The position numbers and the translations under genes are program-made. A stretch of 56,220 nt of DNA from a virus: IMG/VR virus record IMGVR_UViG_3300028422_000156, one strand, 5' to 3'. Shown in pieces: positions 438 through 55,874 of this stretch (positions within the stretch are counted from its first letter, which is position 1; each line of letters opens with the position of its first letter). Below the pieces are notes generated by a model. It did no database searches. It saw only the letters and a list, made by a program, of their open reading frames with translations, and was not told where the DNA came from.

Positions 438-452
438 TGTCGAAGATCGACA
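438..452 (-). repeat. 15-bp palindrome family copy 1 (TGTCGAAGATCGACA)
   Basis: Exact match. The flanks TT..TT orient it on the - strand. It lies inside the intron, 28 nt after the HNH stop. Confidence 0.9.
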
Positions 453-535
453 TTCATGATATAGTCTGATCTTATGTGAAAGCATAAGCTGGTTTCGTAC
501 CGGGGTAGGAGTAGCGAACCTGCCTGAACATAATG

Positions 536-1029
536 TGATGTATAACGCCGGACCTGCTAAGTTAGGAGCAATCCTAGGTAAAAGTTCGGTGGTAGGTAAG
601 CGTAACAAGGATCGGTTCATGAAGAAGTACAAATGCTATCATGAATTGGTACAGAGTCTTGAGCAAGCTTTAGAAGCTAACGGTGGCTGGATCTATGGAC
701 TAGATGGCCGCCGATTCTACGTCAGGAATAAGAAGGATGTTCTCAACACCTGCCTTCAAGGTAACAGTGCGATCATCTTTAAGACGTGGATGGTAATGCT
801 CGATAAAGAACGTCAGTTGTTTGAAGAGAAACACAAGGTAACCCTACGTCAAATCATTGCTTACCACGATGAGCTTCAGTTTGAATTGTACTCTGATGAT
901 AAGGAGTTAGCTGAAGAGTGGGGTGCAATCGCTGTAGAGACTGCGGCCAAGGTTGGTCGTATGTTTAACTTGAATATCCCGGTCGGAGCAGAAGCTAAGG
1001 TCGGAAATAATTGGGCCGAGTGCCACTAA
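536..1029 (+). CDS. DNA polymerase (family A, T7 gp5-like), exon 2
   Basis: The predicted splice gives ..KTELYAL|MYNAGPAKLGAILG, which matches T7 KTFIYGFLYGAGDEKIG (motif B). YHDELQFE downstream is motif C. Confidence 0.85.
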
Positions 1030-1032
1030 ATT

Positions 1033-1047
1033 TGTCGAAGATCGACA
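1033..1047 (-). repeat. 15-bp palindrome family copy 2 (TGTCGAAGATCGACA)
   Basis: Exact match 4 nt after the pol stop and 16 nt before ATG 1063. Flanks TT..TT (reverse orientation). Confidence 0.9.
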
Positions 1048-52133: not shown

Positions 52134-52394
52134 ATGATTGAGTATCAGATGAAGTATCAATGCCCAAACTGCGGACGTAAATGGACAGCCCTCGATTCCG
52201 TTCGAGGTCCAGCGGTTTGTCGATGTTCGACAAAAGTTACGCCGGTTGAAGTTCAGGAGTACAGTTTGTACAACTGCAAACACTGGCAGTTTTGGGATCA
52301 GGTCGACCTCTACGAAGGGGTTGGCAAATGGGAGGGATATGGCGGTTCCGAACCGAGCGTGTCCGATGTGCCAGGAGAACGGGCACGACTCTAA
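52134..52394 (+). CDS. Hypothetical zinc-ribbon protein overlapping the primase start
   Basis: CPNCG...CRCS motif. Overlaps the primase-helicase ORF by about 56 nt. Confidence 0.35.
   Translation: MIEYQMKYQCPNCGRKWTALDSVRGPAVCRCSTKVTPVEVQEYSLYNCKHWQFWDQVDLYEGVGKWEGYGGSEPSVSDVPGERARL
52218..52232. repeat. 15-bp palindrome family copy 28 (TGTCGATGTTCGACA)
   Basis: Exact match with symmetric flanks, about 107 nt upstream of the primase ATG 52339. Confidence 0.9.
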
Positions 52395-54165
52395 CGGAGA
52401 TCACCTGTTCTTAATGGCCGATGGTAAGACGTGGTGCTGTAATAGAACTCAGCATCACCCTGAAGCTAAGATGTACTTTGAGGATGACAACGGAAACACA
52501 CGAACTTCCAGTAAGATGGGAGTCAAAGGTGAGACCTATGTTAAAGAGTCATCCAACAAAGAGATTGATCCTACGGAGTTTGATGTACAAGGATTCCGTG
52601 GTATTCCTGAGTATGTGTACGGTAACGCTGGTGTCCGGTGTGAGACTGACAAGTTTGATGAGCCGCATACCTTCTACTATCCTGTGTTTGCTCAGGATGG
52701 ATCTATGATCTGGAAGATTAGAGAAGTAGATCCGAAGAAGTTCTACTGGTCAGAGAAGGTCGGCGAACGTAAGCTGATGTTCTTCAACCAAGATAAGGTT
52801 GGTGTTCCTAAGCGTCTATTGATTACCGAGGGACAGGATGATGCTCTTGCTGCTGAACACATGCTCAGTAAGTATAACATTAAGTGTATCAGTCTACCCA
52901 ACGGTGCCAACACTAAAGCATTCAAGGATAATTTTGAATGGCTAAGTAAGATAGATGATATTACTTTCGATCCTGATGCTGATGCCGCTGGACTGAAGTT
53001 GATTCCAGAGGTGTCTGCTCTTCTGCCTAAGATCAAGATCCTTGAGAAGACTCTCAAAGATGCATGTGATATGTTCAAGGCTAAGAAGCAAGCTGAGTAT
53101 ATCGACTGTTACTTTCGTGCTAAAGAACACAAGCCTAGTTGTATACTGGAAATATCGGATGAGTTAATTGAAGAGGCCACTAAGCCTGTCGAGTGGGGAC
53201 TTGACTATCCATTCAAAGGTCTTACAGAAAAGACTTTTGGATTGGTGTATCCTGCCGTCATCGGTATCGGTGGTGGTCCTGGTAGTGGTAAGACAACTTT
53301 CGTTCAAGCTATCCAATCTCATCTACTCTATAACCACAAGCAACCGATTGGTGTCATTGATCTTGAGAACAAGCCGGGGTTCGCCCTGCGTAAACTCATT
53401 GGTTACCAGCTTGGTGTCAAGATCCATACACCGGATACACCATATCCGGTAGAGTTACAAGAGAATGCAAGGCATATAGGGTATGACCTGCGTGACCGTG
53501 GGCTTATGTTCTATGACTCCAAGCGTGAGATTGATTGGCCGGATATTGAAGCAGCCATTCGCTTCATGGTGATGTCGAAAGGTATCAAGGCGATATTCAT
53601 TGACCCTATGTCTGGACTGGTTACCCACCTGTCCGCTAGTGAGGGCAACGAATATCTTAACAAGGCAATGTTCTCGCTCTCAAGACTTACCCGTGAGCTT
53701 GACTTTACTGCCTTCCACATCAACCATCTCAACAACCCTAGCTCCGACAAGGATCATGGTGAAGGCGCAGTTGTACGTGGGTCACAGTTTGCTGGCTCTC
53801 GTGCTATGTGGAAATACTCAACAGACCTTTGGGGTCTTGAGGTAAACCAGCAAGCGGTAACAGCAGAGGAAAGATCAAAAGTTACCCTCCGCATTATCAA
53901 GCATCGACTTGATGGCCGCACTGGTACAATCACGTTGAAGTATAACACTGAGACTGGTCGTCATGAAGAGATGACATCTGACAATGTGTTCACCCGAACA
54001 CCGCCGTCACCTATCGTTAGCCCTAGTCCTGATGAGCCTGTCGAAAATGTCGAGCGACAGCGCGATCCTGTCGAAGATCGACAAACACCTGAGCCACCCA
54101 AGCCAAAGGCTCCAGTGTTCAAACCAAAGATGAGAAGGAAACAAAAGGAGGATAAGTTCCTATGA
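52339..54165 (+). CDS. Bifunctional DNA primase-helicase (T7 gp4-like)
   Basis: Zinc finger CPMC...WCCN, TOPRIM ITEGQDDALA..DPDADAAG, Walker A GGGPGSGKTT, Walker B IFIDPM. I chose the start at ATG 52339; the ORF is open from 52246. Confidence 0.85.
   Translation: MAVPNRACPMCQENGHDSNGDHLFLMADGKTWCCNRTQHHPEAKMYFEDDNGNTRTSSKMGVKGETYVKESSNKEIDPTEFDVQGFRGIPEYVYGNAGVRCETDKFDEPHTFYYPVFAQDGSMIWKIREVDPKKFYWSEKVGERKLMFFNQDKVGVPKRLLITEGQDDALAAEHMLSKYNIKCISLPNGANTKAFKDNFEWLSKIDDITFDPDADAAGLKLIPEVSALLPKIKILEKTLKDACDMFKAKKQAEYIDCYFRAKEHKPSCILEISDELIEEATKPVEWGLDYPFKGLTEKTFGLVYPAVIGIGGGPGSGKTTFVQAIQSHLLYNHKQPIGVIDLENKPGFALRKLIGYQLGVKIHTPDTPYPVELQENARHIGYDLRDRGLMFYDSKREIDWPDIEAAIRFMVMSKGIKAIFIDPMSGLVTHLSASEGNEYLNKAMFSLSRLTRELDFTAFHINHLNNPSSDKDHGEGAVVRGSQFAGSRAMWKYSTDLWGLEVNQQAVTAEERSKVTLRIIKHRLDGRTGTITLKYNTETGRHEEMTSDNVFTRTPPSPIVSPSPDEPVENVERQRDPVEDRQTPEPPKPKAPVFKPKMRRKQKEDKFL
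54068..54082 (+). repeat. 15-bp palindrome family copy 29 (TGTCGAAGATCGACA)
   Basis: Exact match in the C-terminal tail of the primase-helicase, read as V-E-D-R-Q. Confidence 0.9.
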
Positions 54166-54332
54166 TTATTAGAGTAGGTTTGCCGTACTTCCAGTGGACA
54201 AAGAAGTTATGTATACTTCCAAGGGTATTCAGGGATAAGAAATCAAATGCACATCACCTTGTGTTCCTACAGTATGTTGAACTGTACAAGGATATTGACG
54301 AGGTGTACTTCAGGGAATGTCAGGAGCAGTAG
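54162..54332 (+). CDS. Small hypothetical protein (56 aa; too short for the supplied ORF track)
   Basis: ATGA coupling to the helicase stop, with an AGGAGG SD 10 nt upstream. Confidence 0.4.
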   Translation: MIIRVGLPYFQWTKKLCILPRVFRDKKSNAHHLVFLQYVELYKDIDEVYFRECQEQ

Positions 54333-55874
54333 TATTCGATATTGAAGCAAATGGTTTCTATGACACGGTGTCTCAGTTGTTATGCATCGTGACTCATGAC
54401 CTGGAAACACAAGAACTGAAAGCGTTCCACGACACCAAGCTATACCCACGACACGGTAGTCTATCTGATGGACTGGCGTACTTGACCAGCTTCGAGTGTA
54501 TCATCGGTCACAACATCTTGACGTACGATGTACCTGTGCTTGTCAAGTTGTACCCTGAGCTTGCCGAAGTCTTAGATGACATCGGTGAGATTGACACTCA
54601 GAAGTTGTGCGAGATCTTATTCCCTGATGTCAAGAAGCAAGGCATCGAAGAGTGGGTGAAGATCTTAGGTCTACCTGATCCGAAGATCCAAGTGAGTGAC
54701 TTCTCGTACCTTTCGCAGAAGCTACTTAACAGATGCTTGGGTGATGTTAAGAACAACGTAGCACTGTATAACTATCTGATTAGACAGAAGAGATCGGAAG
54801 AACGTGGTGGTAACTCATTCAATGCCGCTATCAAACTGGAGCATGATGTCGCCAGATTACACTCGAAGCAAGAGATTCATGGGGTGTATTATGATGTGGC
54901 ACTTGCCCTCAAGACTGTCGATCAATTCACTGAGAAGATGAACGTGTTGGAAGCTAAGGTTACCGACCTTGCCCCACCGATCCTTACAATACCATCGTTG
55001 ACCAAAGAGAAGCAGAAGGATCTCCGGAAGGAGTGCCTTGAACCACTGTTCTCTGGCTATCTTACAGGACAAACGGCAAGTAAAAAGTCGAAGTTCGACA
55101 AAACAATCAACCCGTTCCTGAAGAGTGGTAAGCTCACATCTCAAGTTAGAGAATATTTTGGTGATGTTGAGGCCAATGTTAAGGGTCCGTTCTGCAAGGT
55201 GTCCTTTGAGTTGGAGGACTGGTACACTAAAGCATCCATCGATTACTTTGGCGAGGACTACATACGGAATGTAAAAGGTCCGTACAATAAGATCGAGATC
55301 AACCCGATCAACTGTTCAAGTGATACGCAGATCAAGGATTTCTTACTGAGTCTTGGTTGGGTTCCAATCGAGTACAACTATAGTAAGACTACCAATGAGC
55401 GTACGTCGCCGAAGCTGACTGAGGAATCCTTTGGAAGCTTGCCTCCTGGTTTAGGGCAGGACATTGCTGAGTTCCGTATCCTTCAGCATCGAAGGAGTTT
55501 AATAACCAACATCAAAGACCCGGAAAACAAAGGTGCCTTAAGCCATGTGCGTGAGGACCATCGTGTTCCGGCTGAAGCATTCACCTGTGGTACTCCAACT
55601 GCAAGGTATAGGCACAGCGGGGCAGTATGTAACATCCCACGACCTACCTCTAAGTATGGTAATGAAATCCGCAGGTTATATCGAGTAGCTCCTGGTCACC
55701 TACAGATAGGGATCGACCTCAGTGGTATTGAAGCCAGGATGCTTACCAATTTCTGCTACGAGTTTGAGGGTGGGCCTGAGTTTGCTGAGCTTGTCCTCAA
55801 TGGTGATTGGCATTCGGAGAACGCTAAGCTCTGGATGTGTGACAGAAACGATGCAAAGACAGAACTTTATGCGT
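54317..55874 (+). CDS. DNA polymerase (family A, T7 gp5-like), exon 1
   Basis: Exo I VFDIEANG, exo II GHNILTYDVP, motif A GIDLSGIEARML, and the first half of motif B, RNDAKTELYA. Exon 1 ends at T55874. Confidence 0.9.
55086..55100 (+). repeat. 15-bp palindrome family copy 30 (aGTCGAAGTTCGACA, one mismatch)
   Basis: 14 of 15 positions match, inside pol exon 1, read as K-S-K-F-D-K. Confidence 0.8.

Follow-up and report, generated by a model that had tools for sequence, protein, structure and literature searches.

Among described phage repeats, the closest formal precedent for the element examined here is the 17-bp inverted repeat TGTTCGG-NNN-CCGAACA of the cluster O mycobacteriophages, which is present in Corndog as 34 invariant copies and three further copies with one mismatch (PMC4351075), and for which a dimeric regulator was suggested and no clear link to promoters was seen (PMC4351075). 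Dispersed sites also occur in cluster A mycobacteriophages, whose stoperators are asymmetric sequences of 13-14 bp that are bound by a monomeric, two-domain repressor (L5 gp71-type) and serve in prophage silencing (PMC9283540, PMC6550527), and hairpin promoters are used by phage N4, whose virion RNA polymerase (RNAP), a T7-like domain in a virion protein of ~3500 amino acids (aa), acts at three promoters at the first-entering genome end (PMC4496689). Here, we analyzed a 15-bp dyad, TGTCGA-WSW-TCGACA (W, A or T; S, G or C), which is scattered over the IMG/VR virus record IMGVR_UViG_3300028422_000156; by "the window," we mean this whole stretch of 56,220 nucleotides (nt). We conclude that the dyad most likely serves to dock a regulator that evolves fast and controls the expression of phage genes. 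An earlier reading of the sequence (the original prediction) had reported the copies and had stated that no described system uses this motif, which overlooks the cluster O dyad TGTTCGG-N3-CCGAACA and its >30 copies (PMC4351075); in the literature on the motif string or on dispersed phage palindromes, no description of the present motif was found.

The window is a complete circular genome of 56,076 bp, whose ends (1-144 and 56077-56220) are identical over a 144-bp overlap, and an open reading frame (ORF) spans the circular junction. No dyad copy lies within these 144 bp, so the copy number is unaffected by the overlap. An exact scan with TGTCGANNNTCGACA returned 28 copies of TGTCGA-WSW-TCGACA, and the shorter 13-bp core GTCGA-NNN-TCGAC (GTCGANNNTCGAC) returned 30 matches, adding those at 49940 and 55086, in which A replaces the first T; dinucleotide-preserving shuffles gave 0.00 matches to the full motif and 0.03 to the core. 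The scan thus confirmed the 28 exact and two A-variant copies that had been read by eye, with a single listed start, 54068, needing correction to 54069. When up to two mismatches were allowed, still 30 sites were found, as compared with 0.33 expected, and the family is all-or-none, essentially without degenerate members. Isolated half-sites (n = 45 outside the full copies) lack the flanks of the dyad and resemble ordinary GTC-GAN codons; because they look like coding sequence, with codon usage accounting for them, we rejected them as functional units and regard the full dyad as the functional unit.

The center is always W-S-W, without strand preference, and the individual counts (AGA 9, AGT 7, TCT 5, ACT 3, ACA 3, and TGT 3, with TCA and TGA absent) are those given in the original prediction; when copies are oriented by transcription, the first center base is A in 24 of the 30. 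In the same orientation, the first base after the 3' arm (+1) is A in 26 copies and T in four (binomial p = 6e-5), the second (+2) is A in 21 and T in nine, and G or C occurs at neither position in any of the 30. The two bases 5' of the first arm are W in 25-27 of the 30 copies, mainly A, and the full unit reads WW-TGTCGA-WSW-TCGACA-WW. Its outer flanks are anti-palindromic, being A..A in 22 copies, T..A in three, and A..T in none, and they give the dyad a direction, as had been claimed: flank polarity agrees with transcription in 26/30, the exceptions being 438, 1033, and 33934, and the ambiguous 17773. When five genomes were pooled, the sense-strand +1 base was A in 61 sites versus T in 10 (p = 5e-10).

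Eleven of the 30 copies end 15-29 nt 5' of a start codon, whereas 1.6 were expected and 5000 random placements gave at most seven; similarly, 19 copies lie ≤250 nt from the next start, versus 10 expected (p = 0.0008). The proximity to gene starts that had been noted by eye is therefore real, and it extends to the copy at 42275, which overlaps the ATG of the TerL gene. The copies before starts typically lie 3-17 nt 5' of the Shine-Dalgarno sequence, and two copies overlap start codons. Noncoding DNA, which makes up 6% of the genome, is touched by 12 of the 30 copies, and the remaining copies are in ORFs, several of them deep inside, namely in the genes for ribonucleotide reductase, RtcB, and DNA polymerase and in the gene of a 1546-aa protein. 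These copies are translated in different frames, and the relatives' positions within orthologous genes differ, which upholds the view that the constraint acts on the nucleic acid rather than on the protein. Copy density declines from 1.45 per kb among early genes to 0.59 among middle genes and 0.23 among late genes, and the spacing across the replication block is ~1.2-2.8 kb. Because placement couples so tightly to start codons, we tie the dyads to gene expression, and a nick or recombination site, which had been listed among the possible roles, finds no support.

The early genes are each preceded by a cassette that comprises a GC-rich stem-loop, 20-35 nt, AAAA-dyad-AAA, a Shine-Dalgarno sequence, and an ATG. 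The stem-loop portion consists of CTACAGG, a 10-bp GC-rich stem-loop, and CC-GATAGTG, with no U-run, and is found at ~45270-45310, 46205-46250, 46770-46806, 47445-47490, and 48040-48085, the first of these having no dyad after it. This stem-loop family could represent processing sites (compare RNase III in T7) or attenuators. The 30 dyad copies of the window are the following.

438..452, - strand: TGTCGAAGATCGACA, with T..T flanks and polarity against the + genes around it; intergenic, with the HNH-type insert ORF on one side and the C-terminal part of the DNA polymerase on the other
1033..1047, - strand: T..T flanks; 15 nt 5' of ATG 1063 and just past the DNA polymerase stop; slot filled in L103 and L104
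2806..2820, + strand: within the sigma-like ORF 2399-2965
4628..4642, + strand: 3' end of the 5'-3' exonuclease ORF, 16 nt 5' of ATG 4659
7026..7040, + strand: deep within ORF 6506-8170
8578..8592, + strand: within ORF 8094-8765, 175 nt to the next start
9948..9962, + strand: overlapping an in-frame ATG (9947) of ORF 9713-10066
12493..12507, + strand: within the ribonucleotide reductase ORF
15265..15279, + strand: within ORF 14991-15506
16559..16573, + strand: within the RtcB ORF
17773..17787, - strand: between the convergent + and - blocks, adjoining a bidirectional terminator-like hairpin (17738-17766)
22324..22338, - strand: within the gene of the 1546-aa virion protein
24181..24195, - strand: within the 1546-aa gene, 190 nt past its start
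33934..33948, + strand: within the 761-aa gene (- strand), with polarity against transcription
35360..35374, strand ambiguous: T..A flanks; 16 nt 5' of the ATG of the 761-aa gene (35343, - strand)
40776..40790, - strand: 15 nt 5' of the portal ATG (40760); slot filled in L097, with flanks flipped
42275..42289, - strand: the TerL start codon (42290-42288) takes its TG from the first two bases of the copy
44084..44098, - strand: in the 1.4-kb noncoding region between the divergent late and early blocks
45009..45023, + strand: 27 nt 5' of ATG 45051, early block
46271..46285, + strand: 18 nt 5' of ATG 46304, with a GC stem-loop cassette ahead
46827..46841, + strand: 20 nt 5' of the SAM lyase ATG 46862, with a GC stem-loop cassette ahead
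47518..47532, + strand: 29 nt 5' of ATG 47562, with a GC stem-loop cassette ahead
48102..48116, + strand: 28 nt 5' of ATG 48145, with a GC stem-loop cassette ahead
48778..48792, + strand: 18 nt 5' of ATG 48811
49940..49954, + strand: variant copy AGTCGAAGATCGACA, 20 nt 5' of ATG 49975
50339..50353, + strand: 25 nt 5' of the DNA ligase ATG 50379
51359..51373, + strand: within the DNA ligase ORF
52218..52232, + strand: 5' of the primase-helicase gene, 13 nt to TTG 52246 and 106 nt to ATG 52339
54069..54083, + strand: 3' end of the primase-helicase ORF, 78 nt 5' of ATG 54162
55086..55100, + strand: variant copy AGTCGAAGTTCGACA, within the N-terminal DNA polymerase ORF

A motif scan of IMG/VR returned one related contig, with seven copies in ~14.5 kb and ~70% nucleotide identity, and a search of IMG/VR for related loci with a single protein returned nothing. 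Relatives were chosen through homologues of TerL and of the primase-helicase as unbiased anchors, 12-21 kb was examined from each of ten, and their dyads were detected by de novo palindrome counting. Every lineage examined carries its own dispersed dyad in equivalent positions. Lineage A (the window, L049, and L101) has TGTCGA-N3-TCGACA; lineage A' (TerL ~80% identical; L090, L097-L100, and L103) has TGTC[G/T]A-N4-T[C/A]GACA; and lineage B (TerL ~62% identical; L091, L092, L095, and L096) has TGTCTC-N3 or N4-GAGACA. More distantly, L104 (GCA_003934915.1, RRYU01000956.1; helicase 44% identical) contains TACTTTAAAGTA 17 times in 21.6 kb, mostly followed by RTA, and this dyad has no spacer and is placed as is the dyad of the window; L093 (TerL 51% identical) has AAACTA-N5-TAGTTT four times, in the early region. 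The GC content is 37% in L104 and L093, as compared with 45% in the window.

In all lineages, copies lie 10-30 nt 5' of starts or within ORFs, the start-codon placement recurring in L103, L095, and L104, and the A-rich 3' flank is common to the TGTC-type dyads across lineages. Copies favor the early over the structural half (nine versus one in L092, and 12 versus three in L095), and some dyad slots are conserved, namely one that follows the DNA polymerase gene and others that precede the portal and SAM lyase genes, whereas positions within orthologous ORFs, such as the helicase gene, vary between relatives. At two conserved slots, polarity is flipped, namely before the portal gene (40776 versus L097 4036) and after the DNA polymerase gene (1033 versus L103 12979). 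Both arms always switch jointly between lineages. Inside L103, where the arms are TGTCGA or TGTCTA, they combine as GA/GA in six copies, TA/TA in two, and mixed in four, which fits independent assortment. Within-genome base-pair covariation, which the two TGTCTA..TAGACA copies of L103 had seemed to suggest as compensatory changes, was rejected on the basis of these four mixed copies.

What is conserved, then, is the symmetry and placement of the dyad, and not its sequence or its hairpin stability. Symmetry and placement that persist while sequence is rewritten imply a co-evolving, trans-acting, symmetric reader, and a symmetry that is kept although pairing energy is not suggests that this reader is a protein with two-fold symmetry bound to duplex DNA. 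We therefore favor, at a probability of a little over one in three, that the 30 dyads form an array of operators for a dimeric regulator, probably encoded by the phage, which acts where genes start. This was one of four roles proposed in the original prediction and is the best supported of them, since dyad symmetry has been kept while the sequence was replaced in five lineages. The dyads would be read as double-stranded DNA by a sequence-specific protein with two-fold symmetry, most likely a homodimer, which would co-evolve with them and probably be encoded by the phage. The sites available to it would lie at the 5' edge of translation-initiation regions and at intervals within long genes; once made, the regulator would occupy these sites and control the host RNAP at or just 5' of each gene, whether through occlusion of the promoter or leader or as a block to elongation, with repression or a roadblock more probable than activation. 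The outcome would be a genome-wide temporal control, weighted to early and middle genes, comparable to that exerted by stoperator and CIR arrays in temperate actinophages, although this phage looks virulent.

With an array of operators or roadblocks, the symmetry, the assortment of half-sites, the polarity flips, and the early-to-late gradient are all explained, the flips at conserved slots being neutral for a binder that is two-fold symmetric. Several observations nevertheless weigh against it. It does not account for the polarity of the A-A flank, the coexistence of 3- and 4-nt centers, or the missing reader: (i) the anti-palindromic flanks follow transcription in 84-87% of sites, for which a purely symmetric binder gives no account; (ii) the center is 3 or 4 nt inside single genomes (L092, L095, and L101), which is unusual for a rigid dimer; and (iii) scans of ~70 proteins against Pfam, PHROGs, and NCBIfam gave no candidate dimeric DNA-binding protein. 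Moreover, such operators would have no visible sigma70-type promoter to act on, and the prophage-silencing rationale of stoperator-like arrays fails in a phage without an integrase or repressor, neither domain having been detected among the proteins scanned with these three databases.

The only DNA-binding matches in these scans were a sigma-like protein and a helix-turn-helix (HTH) in the likely small terminase, and screens of the small proteins for HTH and zinc-finger domains (Pfam, NCBIfam, and PHROGs) gave weak Zn-ribbon-like matches only. Two genes were considered as encoding the reader.

2399..2965, + strand: sigma-like gene, ECF-like, 188 aa, with TIGR02937 and phrog_351 matches; candidate reader if the dyads are promoters
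45350..46198, + strand: early orphan protein, 282 aa; speculative candidate reader, without structural support

The 282-aa early protein is common to lineages A, A', and B and was not found in the L093, L094, and L104 loci; it is a candidate because this phyletic pattern matches that of the TGTC..GACA dyads. It has seven database homologues, a (P-S-E)n low-complexity linker, and a conserved C-terminal portion of ~190 aa (LRKKxGxxKWSSWxxTARxVQNCSTIFKGI). As the reader, however, it was not upheld: besides the small number of homologues, its low-confidence AlphaFold model (pLDDT 66, pTM 0.50) had no Foldseek match better than E = 0.9, a further point against a phage-encoded regulator, and it is absent from L104 and L093, both of which have their own dyads. 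Compared with that of the window, the sigma-like protein has 42% identity in L103, where region 2 is well preserved, and 21% identity in L104, values that are compatible with either an operator or a promoter model.

Ranked behind the operator array are, in this order, a promoter for the phage sigma factor, an RNA hairpin, and, on a par with each other, a single-stranded DNA (ssDNA) or cruciform signal and a host-factor site. It is possible, at longer odds than the operator array, that the dyads are single-element promoters for host core RNAP carrying the phage-encoded factor of extracytoplasmic function (ECF) type (2399-2965). The 5' arm (T)GTC would then be an ECF-type -10 element, and transcripts would start 6-9 nt downstream, on ...ACA-AA, giving leaders of 15-30 nt with a Shine-Dalgarno sequence; analogues would be the ~17 T7 promoters in distribution and the phiEco32 gp36 promoters in logic. 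The original prediction had named this option, which stays a live rival on account of the ECF-like sigma factor and the GTC core. The protein matches ECF model regions 2 and 4 (TIGR02937 at 2e-9, which is below the curated cut-off, and phrog_351 at 3.6e-8), its gene has kept its place beside that of the DNA polymerase in both L103 and L104, and its region 2 is well preserved in L103, which shares the TGTCGA arm, at an overall identity of only 42%, whereas the protein of L104, a lineage with an unrelated dyad, is 21% identical. Escherichia coli sigmaE reads a -10 "GTC" (PMC6648896), and the GTC shared without exception by lineages A, A', and B fits an ECF -10 core; phiEco32 gp36 likewise relies on one element, 6-8 bp upstream of where transcription begins (PMC8948821). 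The A-A flank polarity follows transcription in 26/30 sites of the window and 61/71 pooled sites, the predicted start would fit even the shortest leaders (L095 7211: GAGACA-aaa-GGAG-atct-ATG), and near-invariant copies are typical of phage-specific promoters. Many copies lie in replication genes and few in late genes, which we take to resemble the T7 distribution. Nevertheless, a sigma factor gives no reason for a symmetry kept in five lineages, and we know of no sigma-dependent promoter that is a perfect dyad. The 3' arm is conserved at least as well as the putative -10 arm, no -35-like element accompanies the 73 pooled sites although the sigma factor has region 4, and the flank direction at conserved slots can be opposite in different relatives; the early genes have the highest density of copies ahead of them, yet the factor is encoded ~14 kb further downstream, among the middle genes; and the copy at 17773 would fire into a terminator, and that at 42275 would start downstream of the TerL ATG. 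The -10-like 5' flank of the earlier reading is only partly borne out, as a mild TATAAT likeness (3.2/6 versus a background of 2.3), with A2 and T6 jointly present in 13/30 flanks, but without any -35 enrichment. Other promoter and terminator types were rejected in turn: a bipartite ECF promoter, as the 73 pooled sites hold no upstream information and GAAC stands at the right distance in 5/73; a sigma70 promoter, as the best -35 score was 2.27 versus a background of 2.46 and the -10 likeness comes from the A-rich flank only; and an intrinsic terminator, as the sense-strand hairpin is followed by A rather than T, only a few antisense readings being terminator-like. Promoter-like matches from a consensus scanner were no commoner than in shuffles, and sigma70-type promoters are excluded as a class. 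A more speculative view, which we consider improbable, is that the dyad, a symmetric element with A/T flanks that roughly equals a transcription bubble in size, is itself a promoter that is opened as a cruciform or bubble or is marked by a small orphan phage protein, so that the host core polymerase would start at the adjacent A-run without -35 and -10 elements. If true, this would be an undescribed mode of initiation in a phage lacking an RNAP, a genome-wide analogue of the N4 hairpin promoters without an N4-type enzyme, and with its specificity rewritten per lineage.

As RNA, the dyad would form a hairpin (6-bp stem, 3-4 nt loop, A-rich flanks) in 5' leaders, where an RNA-binding protein or nuclease could read it to control mRNA processing, stability, or translation, as do the inter-cistronic RNase III sites of T7 and the 5' stabilizer hairpins of T4. 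We think this unlikely. The copies are co-oriented with transcription, with A-rich flanks on the sense strand even within ORFs; they stand 3-17 nt before Shine-Dalgarno sequences, with two over start codons; the stem would be moderately stable (-5.9 to -6.7 kcal/mol), the anti-palindromic A..A flanks would end it at 6 bp, and both the 3-4 nt centers and the innermost-pair variants of lineage B are loop-like; the joint switching of the two arms between lineages had also seemed to speak for a hairpin; and the phage encodes an RNA ligase, RtcB, and a polynucleotide-kinase-like (PNK-like) domain. However, about half of the copies lie in ORFs, several deep in essential genes, where an RNA signal would be harmful or pointless, G.U-type variants number zero in ~100 copies, and the four mixed L103 copies are mismatched as hairpins on both strands. 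The L104 dyad folds at -0.8 kcal/mol as DNA, as compared with about -5 to -6 in lineages A and B, the loop shows no strand preference (W-S-W in both senses), and polarity is reversed in 4-5 copies of the window and in the relatives' conserved slots. The predicted hairpin role is thus weakened by the L104 dyad without a meaningful hairpin, by the mixed half-sites, and by the in-ORF copies. A hairpin or cruciform extruded from supercoiled DNA or folded in ssDNA, serving as an N4-like promoter or as a priming signal for the primase-helicase, is more doubtful still. The N4 promoter geometry (5-7 bp stem, 3-nt loop, and a short homopolymer run before +1) is matched (PMC4496689), AT-rich flanks would favor extrusion, and the phage encodes a gp2.5-like single-stranded DNA-binding protein (SSB) as well as a primase-helicase. 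The T7 primase-helicase recognizes 5'-GTC-3', a triplet that three lineages keep invariant; the 1.2-2.8 kb spacing in the replication block is on the scale of Okazaki fragments. Opposed to this are the failure to detect an RNAP by Pfam, PHROG, PDB, or catalytic-motif searches, the number and arrangement of copies (three promoters at one genome end in N4, not 30 dispersed), a loop without conserved purines, the inability of the L104 dyad to extrude, and the mixed half-sites of L103; priming, for its part, leaves the start-codon coupling unexplained. Equally doubtful is that the dyad is a host transcription factor site exploited by the phage, with the lineage dyads reflecting different hosts. 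AT-rich dyads go with AT-rich genomes (37% GC in L104 and L093 versus 45%), the 16-bp dyad of lineage A' has what we take to be the generic TGT-N10-ACA spacing of CRP/NtcA-family sites, and a cyanobacterial genome has an identical 15-mer with the same AT flank at three places within 8 kb, in a class-II-activator-like position. In that genome, Dapis sp. BLCC M172 (L131), TGTCGATCTTCGACA followed by AT lies at 4453-4467, 7596-7610, and 7625-7639, each copy 18-20 nt before a -10-like hexamer (about -41) and a conserved leader, AACCGCATTTTTACNGAGGT, ahead of PEP-CTERM genes; the locus has no similarity to the phage. Its layout suggests a transcription factor site of a cellular regulon that is probably unrelated to the phage, and the dyad may thus be used in this way outside the phages, a point that also speaks for the operator array; it does not name the phage host. 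Another cyanobacterial metagenome-assembled genome showed multiple dyad matches arising from local duplication. Against a host factor, 185,579 species genomes (one per bacterial species) yielded, among the 120 matches listed, almost only single chance matches in unrelated taxa and no genome with many copies, close relatives (TerL 80% identical) already differ in center length, and, to our knowledge, 30 invariant copies far exceed known cases of host-factor hijacking. The phage site is also too near start codons for class II activation; such an activator site (CRP/FNR/NtcA) was rejected, as it needs a dyad near -41.5, ending some 34 nt or more ahead of the transcription start and farther still from the ATG, and in the phage only 15-29 nt, which include the Shine-Dalgarno sequence, separate these copies from the ATG.

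Turning to the genome that carries the array, the phage is an uncultured podovirus, with an SU10-type portal and adaptor and T7-like replication genes, and it looks virulent. The + strand genes run from ~44.9 kb, across the circular junction, to 17.7 kb (early genes and then DNA metabolism), the - strand genes begin at ~43.5 kb and extend to 17.8 kb (terminase, portal, capsid, and tail), and GC skew reverses at both points where the gene strand switches. The replication module comprises the primase-helicase, DNA polymerase, gp2.5-like SSB, 5'-3' exonuclease, endonuclease I, and ligase, and a SAM lyase is encoded in the early block. No RNAP was found: the 1546-aa virion protein and the other large ORFs have no Pfam or PHROG matches, a PDB sequence search with the 1546-aa protein gave no match, and a six-frame regular-expression search of the long ORFs found none of the catalytic motifs of T7-like and two-barrel RNAPs (motif B, motif C, and DxDGD). 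No GenBank phage gave a nucleotide match to the first 25 kb of the window, the sole stretch searched, and the best TerL identity among GenBank phages is ~35%, with no mycobacteriophage among the best 25 matches listed.

The DNA polymerase gene is split into 54317-55987 and 535-1029 by an inserted ORF (56016-56220 plus 1-410) of the Endonuclease VII/HNH type (PF02945, 3.4e-21), Rfam detected no intron there, and the polymerase of the relative L103 is uninterrupted (687 aa). In L097/L098, an intein-like LAGLIDADG insertion lies in TerL (~800 versus 472 aa; 1448-3841; proteins P0004-P0008), and a LAGLIDADG ORF splits the capsid gene (8147-8806); selfish elements abound in this clade. A 449-aa protein (1063-2412), encoded between the genes for the DNA polymerase and the sigma-like protein, consists of ~6 repeats of a ~60-aa beta-rich unit (G-K-x-Y-x-V) and is weakly conserved in L103 and L104. 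The RNA-repair set comprises an RNA ligase, RtcB, and a protein with a PNK-like C-terminus (10972-12078, 16042-17136, and 6506-8170), which suggests a counter-measure to host tRNA or mRNA nucleases. Rfam detected a tRNA alone in the window; this gene (49566-49639, 45.5 bits) lies in the early block, was assigned a four-base anticodon, "tctt," by ARAGORN, and may be frameshift-suppressor-like or otherwise unusual. The divergent late and early blocks are separated by 1.4 kb of noncoding DNA (43470-44900), which contains CCCTAGATAC six times (43565-43625), GCAACCCAC 2.8 times, TTCTCTTGTG four times, and long CT-rich runs, as well as two to three copies of TTTCCACACAAACTTGTAA beside sigma70-like hexamers (44349, 44434, and 44743); this region is a candidate origin, genome end, or early-promoter region.

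Dispersed invariant phage dyads have been reported, in cluster O, but never explained, and the comparative data presented here narrow the options. They point to a site that acts at the DNA level, is linked to gene expression, and has a symmetric reader co-evolving with it, and hence to a fast-co-evolving pair of regulator and site that would govern a whole transcription program. The identity of the reader would show how a T7-like phage without its own RNAP times its genes; the pairs would also supply orthogonal DNA-protein recognition modules (TGTCGA, TGTCTC, TACTTT, and AAACTA dyads) and could illuminate the cluster O repeat.

Compared with the described systems, the array resembles the cluster O repeat in (i) its >30 copies with invariant inverted arms and a variable, A/T-rich, 3-nt center; (ii) the uneven mixture of short-intergenic, near-5'-end, and deep-ORF copies, with sites gained and lost between relatives; and (iii) a dyad that begins with TGT and ends with ACA. 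It differs in that cluster O phages are siphoviruses of Mycobacterium and the present phage is a podovirus unrelated to them; in that the arms are 7 bp there and 6 bp here, with G/C-rich flanks there and A/T flanks here; and in that the orientation bias is weak there and strong here, and lineage-wise replacement was not reported there. With stoperators, the array shares dozens of near-identical dispersed sites that mainly occupy short gaps between genes, close to starts and stops, follow the direction of transcription, and co-evolve with their reader, the corresponding values here being 30 copies, 12 of them touching the 6% of noncoding DNA, and a polarity of 26/30; the differences are that the sites here are perfect dyads, that no repressor or integrase was found, and that the phage is virulent-looking. 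The N4 promoters are approached by the 6-bp stem and 3-nt loop (-5.0 kcal/mol as DNA) and by a possible SSB role, but no polymerase was detected here, the 30 copies are dispersed, and relatives' dyads are unable to form hairpins. As with the phiEco32 gp36 and T7-type promoters, the phage has its own sigma-like factor and conserved copies shortly before genes, with fewer of them late, whereas the gp36 promoters (tAATGTAtA; PMC8948821) are asymmetric and number ~6, and the sites here are perfect dyads in every lineage and are commonest ahead of early genes. The PeSL cassettes of the T4-type phages RB49 and phi1 (PMC2839356) likewise combine a GC-rich stem-loop, a repeated motif, a Shine-Dalgarno sequence, and a start codon before small early genes, but they contain sigma70 -35 and -10 elements, none of which accompany the dyad here, and the dyad also occurs far outside the cassettes. 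Dispersed dyad arrays are thus already known; what is new here is the phage clade, the clear polarity together with the start-codon coupling, and the lineage-by-lineage rewriting of the dyad.

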